From a phage, in NCBI GenBank assembly GCA_012439925.1, contig GCA_012439925.1_4519.1: a DNA stretch of 64,000 bases. One strand, given 5' to 3'. The position numbers and the translations under genes were made by a program. Shown here in pieces: positions 1,890-53,645 of the stretch. How positions within the stretch are numbered: position 1 is the first letter of the stretch; every line of letters begins with the position of its first letter. Under the pieces are notes generated by a model. That model was not told the DNA's origin, searched no databases, and saw only the letters and a program-made list of their open reading frames with translations.

Positions 1890-1918
1890 GTTTACTTCTC
1901 CTCTGGTTTTGATATTAT
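1890..1918 (+). promoter_or_regulatory. T4-type early promoter with embedded inverted repeat
   Basis: GTTTAC 1890-1895, TATTAT 1913-1918; inverted repeat TCCTCTGGTT / AACCAGAGGA flanks the -10 and overlaps the RBS. Confidence 0.5.
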
Positions 1919-1944
1919 AACCATATCAACCAGAGGAGAATAAT

Positions 1945-2469
1945 ATGTTAGTTTACCGCGTAGAACGTAGTTTTTGTACTCAACGTGAATCATTACCAGG
2001 AATTGCCATCGAAGACGGTAAAGCCGTCAGAATTTGGGAAACCTCTTGGAATAAAGAACCTCGCTCACCTTACGGTTGGTCTGGCACTGACAACTCTGAA
2101 GAAACATGGGAGTTCCTTGATAAACATGGAATACTCTCAGGTAACTTCTACCATCACGGCGACAACTATAATGTCCCTAATCGTCCTACAGTAAATGAAG
2201 ACAAACTCCTTGAACAAAATATCTTAAGATACCATAGAATTGAGCACACATTTGAATTGAACAAAGATTGGGCTCAAGAGTTCTATTTTGGATTTGAAAG
2301 TGTTGACGCGGTTTATGCATGGTTTGATGACCAGGTGGATGTTGAACTCTTGAAAGCTAAAGGATACTACATCGCGGTCTATGAAGCACCTGATTTCATA
2401 CTCGGAAGTTGTCAATTAATGTTTAGACGTTCATTGGCAGAACAAGTTGATTTTATTTTGCTAAAATGA
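1945..2469 (+). CDS. hypothetical protein
   Basis: 174-aa ORF with strong RBS GAGGAG; no recognisable motif. Confidence 0.55.
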   Translation: MLVYRVERSFCTQRESLPGIAIEDGKAVRIWETSWNKEPRSPYGWSGTDNSEETWEFLDKHGILSGNFYHHGDNYNVPNRPTVNEDKLLEQNILRYHRIEHTFELNKDWAQEFYFGFESVDAVYAWFDDQVDVELLKAKGYYIAVYEAPDFILGSCQLMFRRSLAEQVDFILLK

Positions 2470-2526
2470 TGTACAACAACTATGGTCTATGATACTATAG
2501 ACCTATCAAAACAAGAGGAGAATATT

Positions 2527-3837: not shown

Positions 3838-5655
3838 ATGATTAAAAATGAAATTAAGGTATTGTCAGATGTAGAACATATTAAGAAACGTAGTGGTATG
3901 TATATTGGTTCTTCTGCTAAAGAAGCCCACGAGCGTTTTTTGTTTGGTAAATATCAACAAGTTGAATATGTTCCTGGTCTGGTTAAATTAATCGATGAGA
4001 TTATTGACAACTCGGTTGATGAAGCTATTCGTACATCATTTAAGTTTGCAAATAAAATTGATGTGCAAATTAAAAATAATCAAGTTTCGGTGGAAGATAA
4101 CGGACGTGGTATTCCTCAAGGTTTAGTTACCGACCAAACAGGTGAACAAATTCCTGGGCCTGTAGCAGCCTGGACTATTCCAAAGGCCGGTGGTAACTTT
4201 GGCGATGACTCTGAACGCAAGACTGGTGGTATGAACGGCGTCGGGAGTAGTTTAACTAATATCTTCTCCACGTTGTTTACAGGCATCACGTCAGATGGTG
4301 AAAATGAAATCACTGTTAACTGTTCAAACGGAATGGAAAACAAATCATGGTCTTCTAAGAAATCTAAAGGTAAAGGCACTAAAGTAATCTTCACTCCTGA
4401 TTTCACTTCATTTGAAGAGCATAATTTATCTCAAATTTATTTAGATATTACTTTAGACCGACTTCAAACATTGGCAGTCGTTTATCCTGATATCAAGTTC
4501 ACATTTAATGGTAAAAAGGTTGATGGTAATTTTAAACGATTTGCTAAACAATTTGGTGAAGATAACATCATTCAAGAAAATGATAAAGTCTCTATAGCAT
4601 TCACAACATCACCAGATGGCTTCCGTCATTTAACTTATGTGAATAACATCCATACTAAAAATGGTGGTCATCATGTTGAATGTGTAATGGATGATATCTG
4701 CGAACATCTTTTGCCCGGTATTAAAAAGAAATATAAGGGTATTGAAGTCACTAAAGCTCGTGTTAAAGAATGTCTCACAATGTTGATGTTTATTAGAGAC
4801 ATGAGCAACATGCGTTTTGATTCTCAGACTAAAGAACGTTTAACGTCAACGTATGGTGATATTCGTAATCATATCCAATTAGATGCTAAGAAAATTGCTC
4901 AGGCGCTTCTTAAAAACGAAGCCTTGATTATGCCTATTGTTGAAGCAGCATTAGCTCGTAAATTGGCGGCAGAAAAGGCTGCAGAAACTAAAGCAGCTAA
5001 AAAGGCAACTAAAGCTAAGGTTCATAAGCATATTAAAGCTAACCAATGTGGTAAAGATGCAGATACGACATTGTTCTTAACAGAAGGTGATTCGGCAATT
5101 GGATATCTCATTGATGTTCGTGACCGTGAACTACACGGTGGATTCCCATTACGTGGTAAGGTGATGAATAGCTGGGGTATGTCATATGCTGATATGATGA
5201 AGAACAAAGAGCTCTTTGATATCTGTGCTATCACAGGTCTTATTCTTGGTGAAAAGGCAGAGAATACGAACTATCGTAATATTGCAATTATGACTGATGC
5301 CGATCATGACGGCCTTGGAAGTATTTATCCTGCTTTGCTTGCTTTCTTTAGTAATTGGCCTGAATTGTTTGAACAAGGACGTATTCGCTTTGTTAAAACA
5401 CCTGTAATTATTGCACAAATTGGCAAAACTCAAAAATGGTTTTATACTGTAGCTGAGTATGAAGAAGTTAAAGATACGCTGCCTAAGCATAGTATTCGAT
5501 ACATCAAGGGATTAGGCTCCCTTGAAAAGTCAGAGTATCGTGAAATGATTCAGAACCCTGTGTACGACGTAGTTAAACTTCCTGAAAATTGGAAAGAACT
5601 CTTTGAAATGTTGTTGGGTGATGATTCAGAACTTCGTAAAGAATGGATGTCCTAA
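3838..5655 (+). CDS. 39: DNA topoisomerase II large subunit (GyrB-like ATPase plus Toprim), single fused ORF
   Basis: 605 aa; GHKL ATPase motifs (DNSVDEAI, VEDNGRGIP) and Toprim (TEGDSA, MTDADHDG); T4 gp39 plus gp60 equivalent in one ORF. Confidence 0.9.
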   Translation: MIKNEIKVLSDVEHIKKRSGMYIGSSAKEAHERFLFGKYQQVEYVPGLVKLIDEIIDNSVDEAIRTSFKFANKIDVQIKNNQVSVEDNGRGIPQGLVTDQTGEQIPGPVAAWTIPKAGGNFGDDSERKTGGMNGVGSSLTNIFSTLFTGITSDGENEITVNCSNGMENKSWSSKKSKGKGTKVIFTPDFTSFEEHNLSQIYLDITLDRLQTLAVVYPDIKFTFNGKKVDGNFKRFAKQFGEDNIIQENDKVSIAFTTSPDGFRHLTYVNNIHTKNGGHHVECVMDDICEHLLPGIKKKYKGIEVTKARVKECLTMLMFIRDMSNMRFDSQTKERLTSTYGDIRNHIQLDAKKIAQALLKNEALIMPIVEAALARKLAAEKAAETKAAKKATKAKVHKHIKANQCGKDADTTLFLTEGDSAIGYLIDVRDRELHGGFPLRGKVMNSWGMSYADMMKNKELFDICAITGLILGEKAENTNYRNIAIMTDADHDGLGSIYPALLAFFSNWPELFEQGRIRFVKTPVIIAQIGKTQKWFYTVAEYEEVKDTLPKHSIRYIKGLGSLEKSEYREMIQNPVYDVVKLPENWKELFEMLLGDDSELRKEWMS

Positions 5656-11666: not shown

Positions 11667-11867
11667 ATGGCTAAGCTTTTTAAAGATGTTGAAATTGGTG
11701 AAAAATTTGTCCTGAATAATGGACAGCAGCTTATTCGTGTAGCTTCTATAGCTGGACAAACTCATAACTGCATCGCCCCAACGTGTTGGACCCGATTCTT
11801 TATCGAGGATGACACTGAATGTTTAACTGTCGAAGAGCTTTTTGAACGTTCTGATATGGCCGAATAA
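11667..11867 (+). CDS. hypothetical small protein
   Basis: Start MAKLFKD with RBS GAGGAA; 66 aa. Confidence 0.45.
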   Translation: MAKLFKDVEIGEKFVLNNGQQLIRVASIAGQTHNCIAPTCWTRFFIEDDTECLTVEELFERSDMAE

Positions 11868-11869
11868 AA

Positions 11870-11899
11870 TTGTACAAACTCTTGAGAGCAGAGTATAAT
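11870..11899 (+). promoter_or_regulatory. early promoter-like cassette with inverted repeat around TATAAT
   Basis: TTGTAC -35-like, TATAAT 11894-11899, flanked by GAGAGCA / TGCTCTC; near-identical cassette at 40193-40228. Confidence 0.45.
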
Positions 11900-11944
11900 G
11901 CTCTCATGGATTACAAAAAACATTAATCAATTGAGGAAATTAGC

Positions 11945-12590: not shown

Positions 12591-12730
12591 TGATTAAGAA
12601 AATCTTAGCAGGAGCCTTCGGGCTCTTGTTGTTGCTTACGGTTCTGTACTATGGTGTGTTGTTTGGACTAATCCAAGTAGTGCTTTTCATTTCAGATGTT
12701 ATAATGGATATTCGTTCATTAATATGGTGA
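12590..12730 (+). CDS. small hydrophobic membrane peptide (46 aa)
   Basis: Not in ORF track; start overlaps previous stop (TAATG); hydrophobic core AGAFGLLLLLTVLYYGVLFGLIQVVLF. Confidence 0.4.
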   Translation: MIKKILAGAFGLLLLLTVLYYGVLFGLIQVVLFISDVIMDIRSLIW

Positions 12731-14136: not shown

Positions 14137-14158
14137 GGGAGCTTCGGCTCCCTTTTGT
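14137..14158 (+). terminator. intrinsic terminator after gene 52
   Basis: GGGAGCttcgGCTCCC followed by TTTT. Confidence 0.7.
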
Positions 14159-14179
14159 GCATTTTTTTCTCACAAAACA

Positions 14180-14208
14180 GTTTACATGTGCTTCAAACAT
14201 GATATTAT
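14180..14208 (+). promoter_or_regulatory. T4-type early promoter
   Basis: GTTTAC 14180-14185, 17-bp spacer, TATTAT 14203-14208; downstream TATAGACCTATCAAAACAA also occurs at 2495-2515. Confidence 0.55.
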
Positions 14209-14247
14209 AGACCTATCAAAACAAAACAGCCAAATTGGAGAAATAAA

Positions 14248-14880
14248 ATGTCTAAAGTTACTTACATCATCAAAGCTTCTGAAAACGCTCTGAATGAAAA
14301 AACTGCTGCAATAATGGTTTATATCATTAAGAACAACTTCACCACTGCTGCCAATGTCCGTGAAGCTCTGGAAGCAGAATACAGTGCATCAGTTGTTAAC
14401 TCTAACATTGGTGTATTGATTAAGAAAGGTTTAGTCGAAAAATCCGGTGATGGACTTGTAGCAACAGGCGAAGCAATGGATATTATCCAAAAAGCTGCAG
14501 ACCTCTTTGCCCAAGAAAATGCTCCAGAACTTCTTCAGAAACGTAACACCAGAAAAGCACGTGGAGTTACTCCTGAAATGCATGAATTAGCAAACTTTGT
14601 TTTTGAAAATATTAAAGATAAAGTTGAAGTTAAAGAAATTGGTGAAAACCGTAGTAACTTAGAAGTTCGATTCGCTAAACGAGTTCTAGGCATTCGCCAA
14701 ATTGAAATTCGACGAGATGGCGCTCTTAGAATCTTTGCATACAACATGTCAGAAACTGAATCAAAGCTGTTTACTTCTCTTGAAAATGATGTTAAGATTA
14801 AGATCGGTGGTAAATATACTTACATTGACTTCCCTAATGTGTCTAAAGAAATCATTACCCTTGTAACTAACGTACTGTGA
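14248..14880 (+). CDS. motA: middle transcription activator MotA
   Basis: 210 aa (T4 MotA 211 aa); N-terminal MSKVTYIIKAS...VVNSNIGVLIKKGLVEKSGDGL matches T4 MotA as recalled. Confidence 0.85.
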   Translation: MSKVTYIIKASENALNEKTAAIMVYIIKNNFTTAANVREALEAEYSASVVNSNIGVLIKKGLVEKSGDGLVATGEAMDIIQKAADLFAQENAPELLQKRNTRKARGVTPEMHELANFVFENIKDKVEVKEIGENRSNLEVRFAKRVLGIRQIEIRRDGALRIFAYNMSETESKLFTSLENDVKIKIGGKYTYIDFPNVSKEIITLVTNVL

Positions 14881-22540: not shown

Positions 22541-22562
22541 CGAAAAGGAGACCGAAGTCTCC
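22541..22562 (-). terminator. intrinsic terminator after gene 35
   Basis: Minus-strand GGAGACttcgGTCTCC followed by TTTTCG. Confidence 0.6.
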
Positions 22563-22563
22563 T

Positions 22564-29927: not shown

Positions 29928-30827
29928 ATGTTTAAACGTAAATCTACTGCTGACCTCGCTGCTCAAATGGCTAAACTGAATGGTAACAAAGGTTTCTCTT
30001 CAGAAGATAAAGGCGAATGGAAGCTGAAGCTAGATGCATCAGGTAATGGTCAAGCGGTAATTCGTTTCTTGCCAGCAAAAACTGATGATGCACTACCATT
30101 TGCAATTCTTGTTAACCACGGTTTCAAGAAAAATGGTAAATGGTATATTGAAAATTGCTCTTCTACACATGGTGATTACGACTCTTGTCCTGTATGTCAG
30201 TACATTAGTAAAAATGACCTGTACAATACCAACAAAACTGAATATTCTCAACTGAAACGTAAAACTTCTTATTGGGCTAATATTCTGGTTGTTAAAGACC
30301 CTCAAGCTCCAGATAATGAAGGTAAAGTATTTAAATATCGTTTCGGTAAAAAGATTTGGGACAAAATCAATGCAATGATTGCAGTTGATACCGAAATGGG
30401 TGAAACTCCAGTTGATGTTACTTGTCCGTTTGAAGGTGCTAACTTCGTTCTGAAAGCTAAGCAGGTTTCCGGTTTTAGCAACTATGACGAATCTAAATTC
30501 TTGGGTCAATCTGAAATTCCTCGTATTAATGACGAAGCATTCCAGAAAGAACTATACGACCAGATGGTAGACCTTACTACTTTGACGGCTAAAGACCAGT
30601 TCAAATCCTTTGAAAAATTAAATGAATCTTTCGCTAAGGTTCTTGGTACTGCCGCTCTTGGCGGTGCAGCAGCTGCCGCAGCTTCTGTCGCAGATAAAGT
30701 TGCTTCCGACCTTGACGATTTTGATAAAGACATGGAAGCCTTTAGTTCTGCAAAAACTGAAGATGACTTCATGAGTTCCTCGTCTTCTGACGATGGCGAC
30801 CTCGATGACCTGTTAGCTGGTCTATAA
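29928..30827 (+). CDS. 32: single-stranded DNA-binding protein gp32
   Basis: 299 aa; near-identical to T4 gp32 as recalled, including zinc-binding Cys/His cluster and acidic C-terminal tail. Confidence 0.95.
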
Positions 30828-30833
30828 TAAATT

Positions 30834-30857
30834 GGGAGACTTCGGTCTCCCTTTTGA
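30834..30857 (+). terminator. intrinsic terminator after gene 32
   Basis: GGGAGACttcgGTCTCCC followed by TTTT; identical hairpin at 45849. Confidence 0.7.
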
Positions 30858-30883
30858 GTATCTGTAAATTGCCGAAAAAAGTT

Positions 30884-30912
30884 GTTTACTTCTTCCCTGG
30901 ATGTGTTAGTAT
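30884..30912 (+). promoter_or_regulatory. T4-type early promoter
   Basis: GTTTAC 30884-30889, 17-bp spacer, TAGTAT 30907-30912. Confidence 0.55.
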
Positions 30913-30941
30913 AGACTTATCAACAACATGAGGAAATCAAA

Positions 30942-31334
30942 ATGGAAATCGGAAAATCTTATATCATTAACCCTTTATTTAAAGATGACTTTGTTCAAGA
31001 AGCACCACACAATAATGCTAAGATGTTAAAATTGATTGAACTCCACGGGCCTAGTTTTGTTGTAAACGGAATGGAACCTGATTATGATAGCGATACGTCA
31101 AACGTAGTAAGTGTAACTATGGAAGATGGTACGGTATGTTCTGCCGGTGGTGAAATTGAAACTTATTTTGAGATTTATCCTGACGAGTTCAAATACTTTA
31201 CTGAGGTAGATTTAGTAAAGCCTCAACCTACTAACGAAGGTATAACTTTAGGTGTAACAAAAATCCATTGTATCGTAGATGAAACCAACGTCGACGAAAT
31301 CATCAAACTTTTGCAAAAAACTTTTAAAAAGTAG
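30942..31334 (+). CDS. hypothetical protein (frd.x-like position)
   Basis: 130-aa ORF with RBS GAGGAAA. Confidence 0.5.
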   Translation: MEIGKSYIINPLFKDDFVQEAPHNNAKMLKLIELHGPSFVVNGMEPDYDSDTSNVVSVTMEDGTVCSAGGEIETYFEIYPDEFKYFTEVDLVKPQPTNEGITLGVTKIHCIVDETNVDEIIKLLQKTFKK

Positions 31335-31641: not shown

Positions 31642-31650
31642 GGAAATACA

Positions 31651-31902
31651 ATGAAAACACTAAATTTACTTAAGGTTGGGGAAGACATAGATATTGCTGA
31701 TATCTACAAAAATCTAACTTATTATGATAATTTATTTGTCGTTCAAACCTTAAATGGCGATTATTACACGGTTTCTTTAGTGCGAAATAAATTTAAAAAC
31801 AAATTTTACTTTTGTATTTATAATTATCATGGCCAACGCTCTAGCAATTATATTGAACCGTCTGACATATTTTATATTGAGGAATTAAAATGCTTAAATT
31901 AG
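31651..31902 (+). CDS. hypothetical small protein
   Basis: 83-aa ORF, RBS GAGGAAA. Confidence 0.45.
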   Translation: MKTLNLLKVGEDIDIADIYKNLTYYDNLFVVQTLNGDYYTVSLVRNKFKNKFYFCIYNYHGQRSSNYIEPSDIFYIEELKCLN

Positions 31903-45119: not shown

Positions 45120-45368
45120 ATGATTAAACAATTACAACACGCTCTTGAACTGCAACGAAACGCATGGAATAACGGTCACGAAAACTACGGCGCGTCAATT
45201 GATGTTGAAGCCGAAGCACTGGAAATCCTGCATTATTTCAAACATCTGAACCCGGTACAGGCAGCTTTGGCCTCTGAACTGGAAGCAAAAGATGAACTGA
45301 AATATGCTAAGCCTTTGGCTTCTGCAGCTCGTAAAGCAGTACGTCATTTTGTTATTACCCTTAAATAA
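45120..45368 (+). CDS. rIII: lysis inhibition accessory protein rIII
   Basis: 82 aa as in T4; MIKQLQxALELQRNAWNNGHENYGASIDVEAEALEIL matches T4 rIII as recalled. Confidence 0.85.
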   Translation: MIKQLQHALELQRNAWNNGHENYGASIDVEAEALEILHYFKHLNPVQAALASELEAKDELKYAKPLASAARKAVRHFVITLK

Positions 45369-45663
45369 GTTTTAGGTGATTCGCTACCTTAAGTGCGGCT
45401 AGAAAATCGAGGAGCCGTCGAACTGTCTGATTAATGATTTGCGAATCATTATAGTTTTAAGGCCCCGGCAGTTTTACGGTGTACCTCTTGAATGTATTTT
45501 GTACTATCACGCGTCAGAAAAAGGTTATCTGTCTAAGTCGTGGTTGGTATGATGACGGGTTTATGGTTATCCTGTCGTTAAATATCCAAAACCTATGTTC
45601 CCCTTGAGGGCTTGCGCAGGCAATGTCAATAAGTCCTGCATTTTCATTTAAAGAGAATTTATA

Positions 45664-45843
45664 ATGGCAAAACAAGCTAAAGCAAAGAAAGCAGTTGAAA
45701 AGAAAGTTGATGGTACCTCTAAACGCGCTGGATACAAGCGTGGGTCGAACTCTCGTATTAATCAAACAGTTGAGAAGATCATGCGCAGAGCACGTGCAGT
45801 TCTTCGAGATGATGCTTCTCGTTTTGGAAAGGTTGTTGCATAA
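45664..45843 (+). CDS. small highly basic protein (59 aa)
   Basis: Not in ORF track; Lys/Arg-rich (MAKQAKAKKAVEKKVDGTSKRAGYKRGSNSR...); ends 5 bp before a strong terminator. Confidence 0.45.
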   Translation: MAKQAKAKKAVEKKVDGTSKRAGYKRGSNSRINQTVEKIMRRARAVLRDDASRFGKVVA

Positions 45844-45848
45844 TTTTA

Positions 45849-45872
45849 GGGAGACTTCGGTCTCCCTTTTGT
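45849..45872 (+). terminator. intrinsic terminator
   Basis: GGGAGACttcgGTCTCCC followed by TTTT; identical to the hairpin at 30834. Confidence 0.7.
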
Positions 45873-45903
45873 GCGTTTAGGGCAGAAAAAGTTTAAAAAA
45901 GAT

Positions 45904-45932
45904 GTTTACTCTCCTGTAGGATGTGTTACTAT
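45904..45932 (+). promoter_or_regulatory. T4-type early promoter
   Basis: GTTTAC 45904-45909, 17-bp spacer, TACTAT 45927-45932; shares GGATGTGTTA-TATAGACTT with the cassette at 30884. Confidence 0.55.
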
Positions 45933-45974
45933 AGACTTGTACCACCTAATCAATAAAACAACCTGGAGAACAAA

Positions 45975-46343
45975 ATGAAAATCAATCTGAACTCATACAT
46001 CAAATGTAAAGACCACGATGGTTATAAAGCTATCGAAATTAAAGAATTCCAGTGGATGTTATACAAAGAGCAATTTGAGTTCGTAGGTTGTATGACCCCT
46101 GAAGGTCCTTCTGATGATTTCTCTTGGAAAATTGTGTTAGCAAACTTTTTCACAGGTGACACATACGAATTAAAAACTATTATTACAGGTAAAATTCGCT
46201 CAGAAACATATGTTGACGAAGAAACTGGTTACTCTGAAGATGTCACATGGTATCAAAATGGACGCATTACAGCAGATAACCTGATCGAAAAAATGAAAGC
46301 CAAAGGTGTTTTAAATTTAGACAATTGGATTAAAGTTGCATAA
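45975..46343 (+). CDS. hypothetical protein
   Basis: 122-aa ORF with RBS GGAGAA. Confidence 0.5.
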   Translation: MKINLNSYIKCKDHDGYKAIEIKEFQWMLYKEQFEFVGCMTPEGPSDDFSWKIVLANFFTGDTYELKTIITGKIRSETYVDEETGYSEDVTWYQNGRITADNLIEKMKAKGVLNLDNWIKVA

Positions 46344-46347
46344 AACA

Positions 46348-46376
46348 GTTTACTTTGGTACAGGTTATGTTATTAT
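46348..46376 (+). promoter_or_regulatory. T4-type early promoter with embedded inverted repeat
   Basis: GTTTAC 46348-46353, TATTAT 46371-46376; inverted repeat GGTACAGG / CCTGTACC flanks the -10. Confidence 0.55.
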
Positions 46377-46417
46377 AGACCTGTACCAACAAACAACTTA
46401 AACATCTGGAGAATAAA

Positions 46418-46783: not shown

Positions 46784-46790
46784 TTTAATT

Positions 46791-46806
46791 GGGAGCTTCG
46801 GCTCCC
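46791..46806 (+). other. TTCG-loop hairpin directly upstream of an RBS (no U-tract)
   Basis: GGGAGCttcgGCTCCC followed by ACTGAGGAAATT-ATG. Confidence 0.5.
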
Positions 46807-46818
46807 ACTGAGGAAATT

Positions 46819-47433
46819 ATGTTTAAAGTTAATACTTTTTATAAAATGAATTTTAAAAATGGGGATATTACTCCACGCCTTAAAAACATGTTCTCATATG
46901 ACCTTATCGAGCCTTTTGAAGTTTTAGAAGTTACTGATGCTGGCTCAGTTTGTGAAATTAGAACTTCTGAAGGTAAAATTTATCAGGCTGGTGTTGGTAA
47001 ATTCAGTAATTGTTTTACTTTAATATTCTCGACTGATTTAGATGAGCATTTTATTGAATGTCCTAACCCTAAGGTCCATGAAGTTCCACAACAAGAAACT
47101 AAGAAAAATGGCCCGCATGAATATACGAAGGTTGAAACTCCTCACGGCGATATGTGGCGTCATAACTCTCCTTTCGGAAGTAAAGGAACATTTGCTCAAC
47201 TGCCTAAACCGTATGACGATGAAAAATACATCGTCGCCTTTTTATCTGAACAGGGTACTCAAGACCGTGGATGTCAACGAAGTGGTTTACTAAGTGAACT
47301 TGAAGCTCATAACCAAGCACGTGAATTCGTTGAGAAAAATCCTGGTTCTGAAGCTCTAGTCATGAAAGCAATTACTCAATATATCACTGCTCAACCTGTT
47401 GTTCATCCGGTAGAAATTAATTTCATTAAGTAG
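46819..47433 (+). CDS. hypothetical protein
   Basis: Start trimmed to MFKVNTFYK (RBS GAGGAAA); 204 aa. Confidence 0.5.
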   Translation: MFKVNTFYKMNFKNGDITPRLKNMFSYDLIEPFEVLEVTDAGSVCEIRTSEGKIYQAGVGKFSNCFTLIFSTDLDEHFIECPNPKVHEVPQQETKKNGPHEYTKVETPHGDMWRHNSPFGSKGTFAQLPKPYDDEKYIVAFLSEQGTQDRGCQRSGLLSELEAHNQAREFVEKNPGSEALVMKAITQYITAQPVVHPVEINFIK

Positions 47434-47463
47434 TTTACATCCAAGGACGGATTAGAGTATAAT
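47434..47463 (+). promoter_or_regulatory. T4-type early promoter
   Basis: GTTTAC 47434-47439, 18-bp spacer, TATAAT 47458-47463; similar to the cassette at 353. Confidence 0.55.
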
Positions 47464-47487
47464 GATTTCTTTAGTAAGTGGAAAAAT

Positions 47488-47685
47488 ATGAAATTTTTAA
47501 TAGCACAAACAGTCCAATTAAAAGGTGTTGGAATTCCTGGGGTGATTTTTAAAGTTCTCCCTGAATTTAAAACCGCCGCTGGAATTATCAATGAAGCGTA
47601 TGCTGTTCAATGGGTTGATTGGACTTCTGACATACGTATGGGTAAAGAGTTATCTCCTATTAAAGGGTTGAAACATGTTGAATAA
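47488..47685 (+). CDS. hypothetical small protein
   Basis: 65-aa ORF. Confidence 0.4.
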   Translation: MKFLIAQTVQLKGVGIPGVIFKVLPEFKTAAGIINEAYAVQWVDWTSDIRMGKELSPIKGLKHVE

Positions 47686-51171: not shown

Positions 51172-53259
51172 ATGTCTGAACAAATAAACGAAGTGTTTGA
51201 ATCTGAAGGCAGTCTTCCTGTCGTCAATTTGAACCCTAAAGCTAAAGTTCCACAAGTCTGGAAAATTGGTGATATCGATACAAATATTGTAGTTCGTTTA
51301 TTCTCTTACCTTTCCGAAGGCGATGCTGTAAAACAAGTTAAACTCGGCGACAAATACGCTCATGTTGTTATTATGAGTCTGTCTGAAAAGGGTAATCTCG
51401 CTGAATTGAAAAATGGCCTTGGTCCTGCTCCTATTGATGCAATCAACACCATTTTCAATACAGTATATGAACAGGTTAAAGCTCTTCGTATGGATGCAGT
51501 TTTGTTCCGATTCCCTACCAAGAAATTGAAAGGACGTGGACAACAACTTCAAACTCTTCTTGCTCGTTTAGTTTCTACTAAAACTGGTGGTCGTTTTAAA
51601 GTATTGTCTGCAATGTATCAATTCACAGGTAAACACACATATGTGATGATGGTTCGTAAAAATGCCAACATTGAAGATATTAAAGGCATCCCTAACATTA
51701 ACACAGAGTTGTACACGAAAGTAGATTCTGATGTTGGTGAAGTTTATGTGAGTAAAAAGACTGGCGAAAAGGTCACCAAAGAAACGGCTATCGCTGGTTC
51801 TATTGCTGCTGTAGAAGAAAAACGTAAAGATAAGCCTGTTATTGCTCGTACTAAAATTTCTCGTCGCGCTATTGCCGCAAGTCAATCTTTAGAAGCTGAC
51901 CGCCAAGAAGGTGAGCTATTCCAGAAATACGAAAATTCTGCTAAAGAAGTTAGTGGCCCAGCTACAGCTGAATTACTTCCTGAAGCATATGAAATCGTAC
52001 TAGCCCAAGCATCGTCTACAGCAAAAGGCACTTTAGTTGCTGATATCGAAAATAAGATTTATAATCGTATTGATGAATCCTTTAGATTTGCTGATGAAGT
52101 TTCTTATGGTAGTGTTATTAAGCCGACTTTAGAAAAGTTTGCTAAGAAAATTAAAACCGAAAAAACAACATCTGTTAAAGCATTAGCTGCTTTTGTTGAA
52201 GCTGCAAACGAAATTGCAGACTCTATTAGAGACGAATGGTTTGAAGATTTTAGACGAGATAATTTCCAACTGGCTGATGACGTTTTAGCTGAAGTATCTG
52301 AAAAAACTTGGAAACAACGTAAATCAGCGTTCTTGACTAATGTGATGTATACTTATGCACGAGAATCGGCCAGAGGCACCTTTAATATAACAATGAATCG
52401 GGACCCTAAACAATACTCTATTGCCGAAAAACGAGCTATTCGTGAATATGCCTCTTCTGCATATACTGATATCAATAATATGTTGTTAGGACGTTATAAA
52501 CCGGATTTTTATGATGTTGCAGATGAAGATGAAGTTAAACGCGCTATTGATGGTCTTGATTCGGCGTTTTTAAATGGAGACCGTTTACCTGAAGGACTAA
52601 CGTTGTATAGAGCTCAGTCTATCAGAATGCCTATTTACGAAGCAATGGTTAAAAATAAGGTATTCTACTTCAGAAACTATGTTTCTACTTCACTAGCTCC
52701 TATTATTTTCGGCGGGTTTAAAGAGAACGTTGCCCTTGGACTTGCTCCTGAAGAAGTTCGCAAAGAGCTTAACATTGACAATAATGACGAAGGTGTTACT
52801 ATTTCTCCTAGTCAAGTAAGAACAGCTATGTATGCACCAGAACAAATCCGTGTTAACGTTGGATGGGCTATTGACGGCGCCCATAAAGTTAACGTGATTT
52901 ATCCAGGACAGTTGAGTAATCACCCTAATGAGCAAGAAATTATTTTGCCTAGAGGCATTCTCTTGCAGATAAATAAAATTACAGATGCGTCATCTGACAC
53001 TGGTGCAGGTTTAGAATCCAACCTTAAATTTATTCAAGCTGAAGTCATGTCCTCAGACCAGTTGGATGAAGCTGTCATTTACGATGGTGATGTTCTCATG
53101 GAAACAGGCGAGGTGGTTGCTATGACTGGTGAAATCGAATCGGATGAGCCGGTATCGTTCTCCTCATTTGTAGAAAAAACTAGTGCTCCTAAAGGATTGA
53201 AACTGTTAGCATCTTTAATGGATTTAGAATCGGTTCCGTTTAAATTTGTTCAAGGATAG
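51172..53259 (+). CDS. alt: Alt ADP-ribosyltransferase (virion-packaged)
   Basis: 695 aa (T4 Alt 682 aa); similarity to T4 Alt over the N-terminal half as recalled; ART-like C-terminal region. Confidence 0.85.
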   Translation: MSEQINEVFESEGSLPVVNLNPKAKVPQVWKIGDIDTNIVVRLFSYLSEGDAVKQVKLGDKYAHVVIMSLSEKGNLAELKNGLGPAPIDAINTIFNTVYEQVKALRMDAVLFRFPTKKLKGRGQQLQTLLARLVSTKTGGRFKVLSAMYQFTGKHTYVMMVRKNANIEDIKGIPNINTELYTKVDSDVGEVYVSKKTGEKVTKETAIAGSIAAVEEKRKDKPVIARTKISRRAIAASQSLEADRQEGELFQKYENSAKEVSGPATAELLPEAYEIVLAQASSTAKGTLVADIENKIYNRIDESFRFADEVSYGSVIKPTLEKFAKKIKTEKTTSVKALAAFVEAANEIADSIRDEWFEDFRRDNFQLADDVLAEVSEKTWKQRKSAFLTNVMYTYARESARGTFNITMNRDPKQYSIAEKRAIREYASSAYTDINNMLLGRYKPDFYDVADEDEVKRAIDGLDSAFLNGDRLPEGLTLYRAQSIRMPIYEAMVKNKVFYFRNYVSTSLAPIIFGGFKENVALGLAPEEVRKELNIDNNDEGVTISPSQVRTAMYAPEQIRVNVGWAIDGAHKVNVIYPGQLSNHPNEQEIILPRGILLQINKITDASSDTGAGLESNLKFIQAEVMSSDQLDEAVIYDGDVLMETGEVVAMTGEIESDEPVSFSSFVEKTSAPKGLKLLASLMDLESVPFKFVQG

Positions 53260-53288
53260 TTTACAAGCACATGGATGTGTGATACTAT
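53259..53288 (+). promoter_or_regulatory. T4-type early promoter
   Basis: GTTTAC 53259-53264, 18-bp spacer, TACTAT 53283-53288. Confidence 0.55.
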
Positions 53289-53317
53289 CATCCTATCAAC
53301 AACATGAGGAAAACGTT

Positions 53318-53611
53318 ATGAAATCTATGCTTCGCTTTAATGGTCAAGAACTAGTAGTTGAAGATGCTATCCCAGCGGATGATGTTTTTAACGAAGCTGT
53401 GATTGACGAATTGAATCGAGTATTCCCAGGTGCATTCCATATTGCTATGGAACCTCTTAAAAACTTTCGTGACCCTGAACACACTGATCAAATTTTTATC
53501 GGTGTACTGACAGGTCATTTAGAAACAGAGGTACCAATGGTCGTATTAGTTAAATACTCTAAAGATGATACTCCATTCCGAGCACCAGCATTTCTTTCAT
53601 TCCGTAAATAA
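53318..53611 (+). CDS. hypothetical protein
   Basis: Start trimmed to MKSMLRFNG (RBS GAGGAAA); 97 aa; followed by a terminator. Confidence 0.5.
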   Translation: MKSMLRFNGQELVVEDAIPADDVFNEAVIDELNRVFPGAFHIAMEPLKNFRDPEHTDQIFIGVLTGHLETEVPMVVLVKYSKDDTPFRAPAFLSFRK

Positions 53612-53620
53612 ACCCCTAAA

Positions 53621-53645
53621 GGGAGACGTTGTCTCCCTTTTTCTT
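53621..53645. terminator. bidirectional stem-loop terminator between convergent genes
   Basis: GGGAGACgttGTCTCCC followed by TTTTT on plus strand; lies between plus-strand ORF 53318-53611 and the minus-strand gene 54 end. Confidence 0.6.

Follow-up and report, generated by a model that had tools for sequence, protein, structure and literature searches.

Two look-alike terminator-promoter units in an RB69-like phage are probably position-fixed members of a T4-like punctuation family

Two intergenic stretches of a T-even phage genome, located 15 kb apart, each combine a terminator-like hairpin with an early promoter and resemble each other so closely that an earlier note described them as a duplicated unit and as portable regulatory modules in front of unrelated small open reading frames (ORFs). 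Are they copies of one module that has moved, or separate members of a regulatory family that happen to look alike? The kind of element as such is already known. Promoter-early stem-loops (PeSLs) consist of an AT-rich region, a sigma-70-type early promoter, a stem-loop, and a Shine-Dalgarno (SD)/ATG sequence and are concentrated in hyperplastic regions (Arbiol 2010, PMC2839356; Comeau 2014, PMC4122927). Since these papers describe the composite element, the idea of the earlier note is essentially a published hypothesis.

The DNA analyzed here, a stretch of 64,000 nucleotides that is referred to as the window, belongs to a Mosigvirus, i.e., an RB69-like T-even phage (Tevenvirinae). Its identity with ATK47 and JS09 is 97 to 98%, and in the core genes it shares about 80% identity with T4-type phages. 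Unit 1 (positions 30828-30941) lies between gene 32 and an frd.2-like ORF on the same strand, and unit 2 (45844-45974) lies between 30.9 and 30.8, also on the same strand. Gene 32 (29928..30827, + strand), a 299-aa ORF for the single-stranded DNA (ssDNA)-binding protein, is situated in a region that is 98% identical to the gp32 region of ATK47, and the frd.2-like ORF (30942-31334, + strand; ATG at 30942) matches phrog_622. Gene 30.9 (45664..45843, + strand; 59 aa; phrog_1427) was named after the annotations of ATK47, JS09, and RB69, and ORF 30.8 (45975-46343, + strand), whose SD sequence GGAG occupies 45965-45968, matches phrog_1507. Unit 1 would accordingly close a transcription unit ending in gene 32, and unit 2 would close one whose last gene is 30.9. 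The frd.2-like ORF and 30.8 are unrelated to each other (BLASTP E = 7.7; PHROGs 622 versus 1507). Scanning of the whole window revealed no Rfam match at or above the gathering score and no tRNA or tmRNA.

Both units show the same order of parts, namely, stop codon, hairpin, TTTT, A-tract, -35, spacer with TGT, -10, AGACTT, leader, SD sequence, and ATG. The predicted terminator of unit 1 (30834..30855, + strand) has a GGGAGAC/GTCTCCC stem (30834-30840 and 30845-30851), a TTCG loop, and a T-run at 30852-30855; that of unit 2 (45849..45870, + strand) has the same stem and loop (stem, 45849-45855 and 45860-45866; T-run, 45867-45870). The RNA folds reach -13.4 kcal/mol (z = -3.7) for unit 1 and -14.1 kcal/mol (z = -3.8) for unit 2, and 0/200 shuffles folded as well as these hairpins. 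As in rho-independent terminators, a 7-bp stem with 5 G-C pairs is followed by TTTT, a T-run of only 4 nt, and the GenBank record of ATK47 contains annotated ARNold terminators at both orthologous sites.

The early promoters were read from the sequence, and their activity is predicted. In unit 1 (30875..30912, + strand), an A-tract (30875-30880) precedes the -35 element GTTTAC at 30884-30889 (TTTACT at 30885-30890), TGn at 30904-30906, and the -10 element TAGTAT at 30907-30912; transcription would start near 30919. The promoter of unit 2 (45886..45932, + strand) has two A-tracts (A5 at 45886-45890 and A6 at 45895-45900), followed by GTTTAC at 45904-45909, TGn at 45924-45926, and the -10 element TACTAT at 45927-45932. 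GTTTAC starts 32 nt past the stem in unit 1 and 37 nt past the stem in unit 2, and the stretch between hairpin and promoter is 20 to 30 nt of unconserved DNA with the A-tract at its end. The spacer between -35 and -10, counted from TTTACT, is 16 nt in both units. The leader of unit 1 (30918..30944, + strand) carries the 19-mer TATCAACAACATGAGGAAA and the SD sequence GAGGA (30930-30934), and both leaders are A/C-rich with a GAGGA or GGAG SD sequence before the ATG. A generic sigma-70/terminator scan, which gave no enrichment relative to shuffles and is poorly suited to T-even promoters, called a terminator-like element at 30834-30851 and listed neither promoter (8/12 hexamer matches each).

The sequence statements of the earlier note all hold within 1 to 4 nt. 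The hairpin reported to be identical at both sites, GGGAGACTTCGGTCTCCCTTTTG, is present without a mismatch at 30834-30856 and 45849-45871 on the + strand; it had 0 matches in 100 dinucleotide shuffles, and a copy with three mismatches lies at 22541-22563 on the - strand. The GTTTAC promoter that should follow about 30 bp later does so at the distances given above, and the block that the two promoters were said to share is found on the + strand at these two sites only (GGATGTGTTA at 30899 and 45919 and TATAGACTT at 30910 and 45930). The two further repeats that had been noticed were likewise recovered, i.e., the 19-mer TATAGACCTATCAAAACAA at 2496 and 14206 and the 19-mer TATCAACAACATGAGGAAA at 30918 and 53294. 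Ranked by length, the exact direct repeats of the 64-kb window are headed by these three (23, 19, and 19 nt).

The 14206 copy of TATAGACCTATCAAAACAA is part of a third full unit upstream of motA (14137..14224, + strand), in which the hairpin GGGAGCTTCGGCTCCC is followed by TTTTGTGC, the -35 element GTTTAC at 14180, and the -10 element TATTAT at 14203; motA (14248-14880, + strand) matches phrog_1345. The other copy belongs to a -10 element and leader (2484..2514, + strand) upstream of a cef-like ORF (2527-2754), a site with neither GTTTAC nor an upstream hairpin. The second copy of TATCAACAACATGAGGAAA lies in an early promoter and leader (53259..53312, + strand; GTTTAC at 53259 and -10 element TACTAT at 53283) with no hairpin upstream, and the ORF that follows (53318-53611) is of unknown function. 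Between 30.8 and 30.7, an early promoter (46348..46417, + strand) belongs, like units 1 and 2, to the TAnTATAGAC subfamily; it is conserved in T4 and RB69 and has an 11-bp inverted repeat around the -10 element (fold of -19.7 kcal/mol, z = -5.6).

The early leaders at 2505, 14215, 30918, 38820, 42350, and 53294 share the A/C-rich motif (C)TATCAA(C/A)AACA, after which GAGGA or GGAG stands 5 to 8 nt before the ATG. The motif might serve promoter escape, translation enhancement, or RegB-type cleavage at GGAG.

Alignment of the two units revealed identity in four blocks only, i.e., hairpin plus T-run, A-tract plus -35 element, TGn plus -10 element, and discriminator. Nothing aligned in the leaders, the coding flanks, the 5' portion of the spacer, or the DNA separating each hairpin from its promoter. 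In this alignment, the similarity is largely limited to the promoter and terminator consensus without shared flanks, the outcome that the earlier note had named as speaking against a duplication. The 15 GTTTAC promoters on the + strand of the window have a mean identity of 67% over a 45-nt core. Over the same core, the promoters of units 1 and 2 reach 0.80 and tie with three others out of 105 pairs; over +/-60 nt, they rank first of 105 (0.71 versus 0.68 for the next pair), and this only when the hairpin is counted in. In the -10 block, the two units share 17/20 positions (rank 2 of 120), and the promoter at 46348 shares 16/20 with each of them.

A recent duplication or transposition of a contiguous, portable regulatory module of about 100 bp would explain why no exact repeat in the window is longer than the 23-nt one, why blastn aligns unit 1 with unit 2 at about 74% over about 90 nt, and why the pair ranks first over +/-60 nt. 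It is difficult to reconcile with the stretch between hairpin and promoter, which measures 32 versus 37 nt and cannot be aligned, with the different leaders, and with the lack of shared flanks, terminal repeats, and target duplications. Moreover, blastn searches with the 114-nt unit retrieved a full-length match only at the orthologous Mosigvirus locus, and matches in other genera covered either the promoter half or the hairpin half, each at other loci.

The distribution among relatives bears on the same question. Both units are present at the same loci in ATK47, JS09, LF82-7, NHEP10, PHB12, and RB69, and the fact that each keeps its own locus-specific spacer in all Mosigviruses again argues against recent copying. 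Both hairpins are invariant in 7/7 Mosigviruses examined, and the promoter of unit 2 is identical or nearly so in 6 Mosigviruses and RB69. Both loci of T4 and QOTSP (Tequatrovirus) and of JS10 (Dhakavirus) already have this terminator-promoter layout, with a hairpin, a T-run, and an early promoter of differing sequences. The stems after gene 32 are GGGGACC..GGTCCCC in T4 and GGGAAGAC..GTCTTCCC in JS10, and those after 30.9 are GAGGACTCC..GGAGTCCTT in T4 and GGGACTC..GAGTCCC in JS10. Since the stems differ between genera yet are perfectly complementary at the same loci, these compensatory differences indicate selection on structure and a long-term fixed position, not mobility.

The units also do not behave like mobile elements of the MITE or IS type, given that their interior is unaligned, that full-length matches are confined to the orthologous locus, and that their positions are conserved. 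The first two of these observations led us to reject the reading as a recently duplicated or mobile module, which we regard as highly improbable; the resemblance does not stem from recent copying of a module of about 100 bp. What stands of the earlier view is the composite nature of the units and the unrelatedness of the ORFs behind them. Their portability and recent copying do not stand, and the term duplicated unit had to be given up for two stretches whose similarity is confined to functional blocks and which are fixed across Mosigvirus, Tequatrovirus, and Dhakavirus.

Regarding the identity of the hairpins, at least 120 IMG/VR contigs, whose GC contents are 30 to 51%, contain the exact 22-mer, and at least 71 unrelated flank contexts were counted among the 115 full-flank matches listed. 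Two invented control 22-mers, in which the stem was permuted and C(UUCG)G and TTTT were retained, likewise occur in at least 120 IMG/VR contigs each. Both controls reach the same lower bound as the exact 22-mer and lend no support to a specially favored GGGAGAC stem; they also teach the more general caution that exact identity of UUCG terminators over 22 to 23 nt is no proof of common descent. Within the window, 10/11 distinct terminator-like hairpin loci have a TTCG loop, and two further hairpins each have a second, identical copy (GGGAGCTTCGGCTCCC at 14137 and 46791 and GAGCCTTCGGGCTCTT at 12612 and 51117). The GGAGAC/GTCTCC stem occurs four times, twice before early promoters, once before a late promoter, and once at a convergent early/late boundary; these differing contexts indicate that the hairpin is an element reused independently of the promoter.

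The near-copy hairpin on the - strand (AAAGGAGACTTCGGTCTCCTTT, 22565-22531) is followed 5 nt on by the T4-type late promoter TATAAATA and then by the SD sequence and ATG of an ORF beginning with MADLKAGSTVGG, which presumably resembles gp36; the arrangement is a composite of a terminator and a late promoter. Among the IMG/VR matches listed, TATAAATA is found within 45 nt downstream in 20/115 contexts of the exact hairpin. At 53618-53640, AAAGGGAGAC-GTT-GTCTCCCTTT forms a perfect 10-bp hairpin with the GGGAGAC stem and is flanked by an A-run and a T-run. It is located just past the last early ORF of the + strand, approximately where the GC skew turns negative, and probably terminates transcription in both directions where early and late genes converge.

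In the Mosigvirus lineage, ectopic gene conversion (concerted evolution) could have copied short patches between cassettes 15 kb apart, which would have made the hairpins identical and given the gene-32 promoter its 30.9-like core. Such an exchange would be in line with the finding that the two hairpins are identical only in Mosigvirus and differ in T4, QOTSP, and JS10. In addition, a GGACTC-type stem at 30.9 is common to JS10 and T4, and the gene-32 stem of JS10, GGGAAGAC, is near the Mosigvirus stem; by this comparison, the 30.9 hairpin of Mosigvirus looks derived towards the gene-32 form. The core of the gene-32 promoter is AAACATGATAC in RB69 and JS10 and the 30.9-like GGATGTGTTAG in most Mosigviruses, i.e., AAACATGATACTATAG in RB69 and JS10 versus GGATGTGTTAGTATAG in the window, JS09, ATK47, and NHEP10, the latter being near the 30.9 promoter. 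Because the core of unit 1 in most Mosigviruses is nearer to unit 2 than to the RB69/JS10 state, some ectopic exchange is possible, and recombination between such elements has been proposed in the PeSL model.

However, the shared patches measure only 23 and about 20 nt and are separated by unalignable DNA, and the hairpin sequence arises independently in many unrelated phages. The promoter sequences are not peculiar to the pair either, as GGATGTGT is also present in the promoter at 53259 and TATAGAC in three other promoters. Furthermore, no change at one locus was tracked at the other, both hairpins being invariant in the seven Mosigviruses examined. We consider it unlikely that gene conversion equalized the hairpins and shaped the gene-32 promoter core. 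If it did, T-even regulatory cassettes would evolve in concert across 15 kb, and the pattern would represent comparative evidence for PeSL-PeSL recombination between far-apart and not just adjacent cassettes.

The earlier note had also proposed a comparison of the ORFs beside the units among related genomes, and their content indeed varies (ATK47, RB69, T4, and JS10). ATK47 possesses an extra, diverged tandem paralog of frd.2 directly after the gene-32 unit, which is found at 4044-4410 of the ATK47 sequence compared and is unannotated in the GenBank record. Its junction lies in the leader of unit 1 and corresponds to an insertion at window position 30923; the first 11 codons are the same as those of the frd.2-like ORF, and the leader with the SD sequence is repeated at the junction. 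In RB69, ORF245c is located between unit 1 and frd.2, together with a different promoter core. The first ORF past the gene-32 unit is frd.3 in T4, JS10 has frd.2a and frd.2b at this place, and the annotated genomes compared have anywhere from 2 to 7 ORFs between gene 32 and frd. JS10 lacks 30.8 and 30.7, which are both promoter flanked. In NHEP10 and PHB12, an unrelated 282-nt ORF takes the place of the 30.6A cassette (46825-47488), which is bounded by the hairpin at 46791 and the promoter at 47433. As expected for PeSLs, neighboring ORFs have thus been inserted, deleted, or replaced among close relatives, and these patterns fit the PeSL shuffling model.

It could be objected that the units are transcription signals only, which became alike by pure functional convergence, and that the variability of the nearby ORFs is unrelated to them. 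In favor of this explanation, the hairpin is generic and the similarity of the promoters is at the family level. Several indel breakpoints (e.g., 31648-31880 and 45368-45504) are located away from the terminator-promoter units, and unit 2 is stable within Mosigvirus, with no adjacent indel seen. Yet the junction of the ATK47 paralog falls exactly in the leader of unit 1, the 30.6A swap is bounded by a hairpin on one side and by a promoter and leader (47433-47488) on the other, and the exchange of the promoter core in RB69 coincides with ORF245c. The promoter-flanked position of the two ORFs that are absent from JS10 and the published detection of PeSL mini-circles in RB49 and phi1 by inverse PCR point in the same direction. 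A complete independence of units and ORF variability is therefore conceivable but doubtful.

The segment from 46789 to 47488 comprises an ORF of about 210 aa (30.6A type, named so in JS09 and TuIa) with its downstream early promoter (GTTTAC at 47433) and is cassette-like. Its breakpoints lie right after the hairpin at 46791 and at the next ATG (47488), and this hairpin (GGGAGCTTCGGCTCCC) has no T-run and abuts an SD sequence. RB69 has a short 30.6 ORF at the 30.6A position. The segment from 45368 to 45504 (about 136 nt, between rIII and 30.9), which has no long ORF, is missing in LF82-7 and NHEP10.

Overall, we assign a probability of roughly 80% to the reading that the two stretches are separate, position-fixed members of a T4-like family of terminator/early-promoter punctuation, i.e., PeSLs. 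Their likeness results from the narrow range of sequences open to strong UUCG terminators and, likewise, to T-even early promoters, and from the membership of both promoters in one local subfamily (TGTTAnTATAGAC). The stable C(UUCG)G hairpin with its U-run would end the upstream early transcript, which is the gene 32 message for unit 1 and the rIII-30.9 message for unit 2. The A-tract, the -35 element GTTTAC, the extended -10 element (TGn plus TAnTAT), and the discriminator AGAC would then restart transcription by the host sigma-70 RNA polymerase, and the short A/C-rich leader with its GAGG or GGAG SD sequence would drive translation of the next small early ORF. In a secondary role, the conserved blocks would offer short homology patches to the phage recombination system, and recombination at these patches would add, remove, or swap neighboring ORFs. 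Judged from the literature and from the comparative patterns described here, such a role as recombination linkers is probable. The current analysis adds little that is new, as it reidentifies PeSL-type terminator/early-promoter cassettes in an RB69-like phage. For genome annotation, the units are of use as marks of transcription-unit boundaries and of likely ORF-shuffling junctions.

Many early promoters have an inverted repeat around the -10 element, as observed in the + strand promoters with GTTTAC at 1890, 11096, 11608, 40193, 42319, 46348, and 53259 and also at 11867-11910, e.g., in the promoters at 46348 (TTGGTACAGGT..ACCTGTACCAA, -19.7 kcal/mol) and 42319 (-16.9 kcal/mol). Complementarity is higher between the two arms of one promoter than between arms combined across promoters (permutation p = 0.00055), and in the paralogous promoters 11886/40209, two stem positions differ and are compensated (GAGAGCA/TGCTCTC versus AGGAGCA/TGCTCCT). 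At 1890-1945 (+ strand), the promoter spacer TTCTCCTCTGGTT and the downstream SD region AACCAGAGGAGAA are perfect complements of each other over 13 nt (fold of -23.9 kcal/mol, z = -6.9). Read-through transcripts would hide the ribosome-binding site in this fold, and transcripts starting at this promoter would not. The arrangement resembles the known control of the e, soc, and 49 genes of T4.

Among known systems, integron attC cassettes and MITEs are similar to the units in being short, repeated noncoding units that flank small variable ORFs. In contrast to these, units 1 and 2 come without a dedicated recombinase, terminal inverted repeats, or a target-site duplication; they keep their positions, and their similarity is limited to transcription signals. 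T4 mRNA provided the first examples of CUUCGG hairpins (Tuerk et al. 1988, as cited in Hall 2015, PMC4371310), and the hairpins of the window have the same loop, a G/C-rich stem, an intercistronic site, and a U-run, with no material difference from what that account conveys; here, one stem is reused at four loci. The early promoters of T4 are "uber" UP/-35/TGn/-10 promoters with extra consensus regions (Hinton 2010, PMC2988021). Units 1 and 2 share the UP-like A-tract, the GTTTAC -35 element, TGn, and the -10 element with them, and the high pairwise identity of the promoters results from conserved positions that extend beyond the sigma-70 hexamers. The Mosigvirus subfamily, whose activity is predicted, is distinguished by TAnTAT plus AGAC(C/T)T and by the leader (C)TATCAA(C/A)AACA.

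The closest relationship is with the PeSLs, which in RB49 and phi1 were shown to promote and terminate transcription and, by inverse PCR, to yield mini-circles (PMC2839356); for units 1 and 2, termination and promoter activity are predicted from the sequence. Subsequent work on the T-even pair PST/T4 widened the PeSL concept and gave the promoter consensus as TTTACW N17 TAYWAT (PMC4122927). TTTACT N16 TAGTAT in unit 1 and TTTACT N16 TACTAT in unit 2, both with TGn, depart from this consensus by a spacer of 16 instead of 17 nt and, in unit 1, by a G instead of Y; both promoters fit the 15-member family of the window well. The stems of the published elements are AGNA..TCNT in PST/T4 and polyG/polyC in RB49, in contrast to GGGAGAC/GTCTCCC with a UUCG loop in the units, which moreover are fixed in position across genera. 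Other promoters of the window with a stem-loop between -35 and -10 or over the -10 element correspond to published PeSL subclasses; the inverted repeats around the -10 element match those with the stem-loop over it, and for T-even phages PMC4122927 gives stem-loops only upstream of the promoter. Units 1 and 2 agree with PeSLs in their intergenic site and in the order of stop codon, stem-loop, AT-rich tract, early promoter, SD sequence, and ATG, with A6 (unit 1) and A5 plus A6 (unit 2) as A-tracts and with two hairpins whose stability and T-run suggest that they terminate transcription. Their -35 element TTTACW and TAYWAT-like -10 element come near the T-even form, and they are likewise located among small, nonessential early ORFs that vary between close relatives; PeSLs have been proposed to insulate small early genes and to act as recombination linkers (PMC2839356; PMC4122927).
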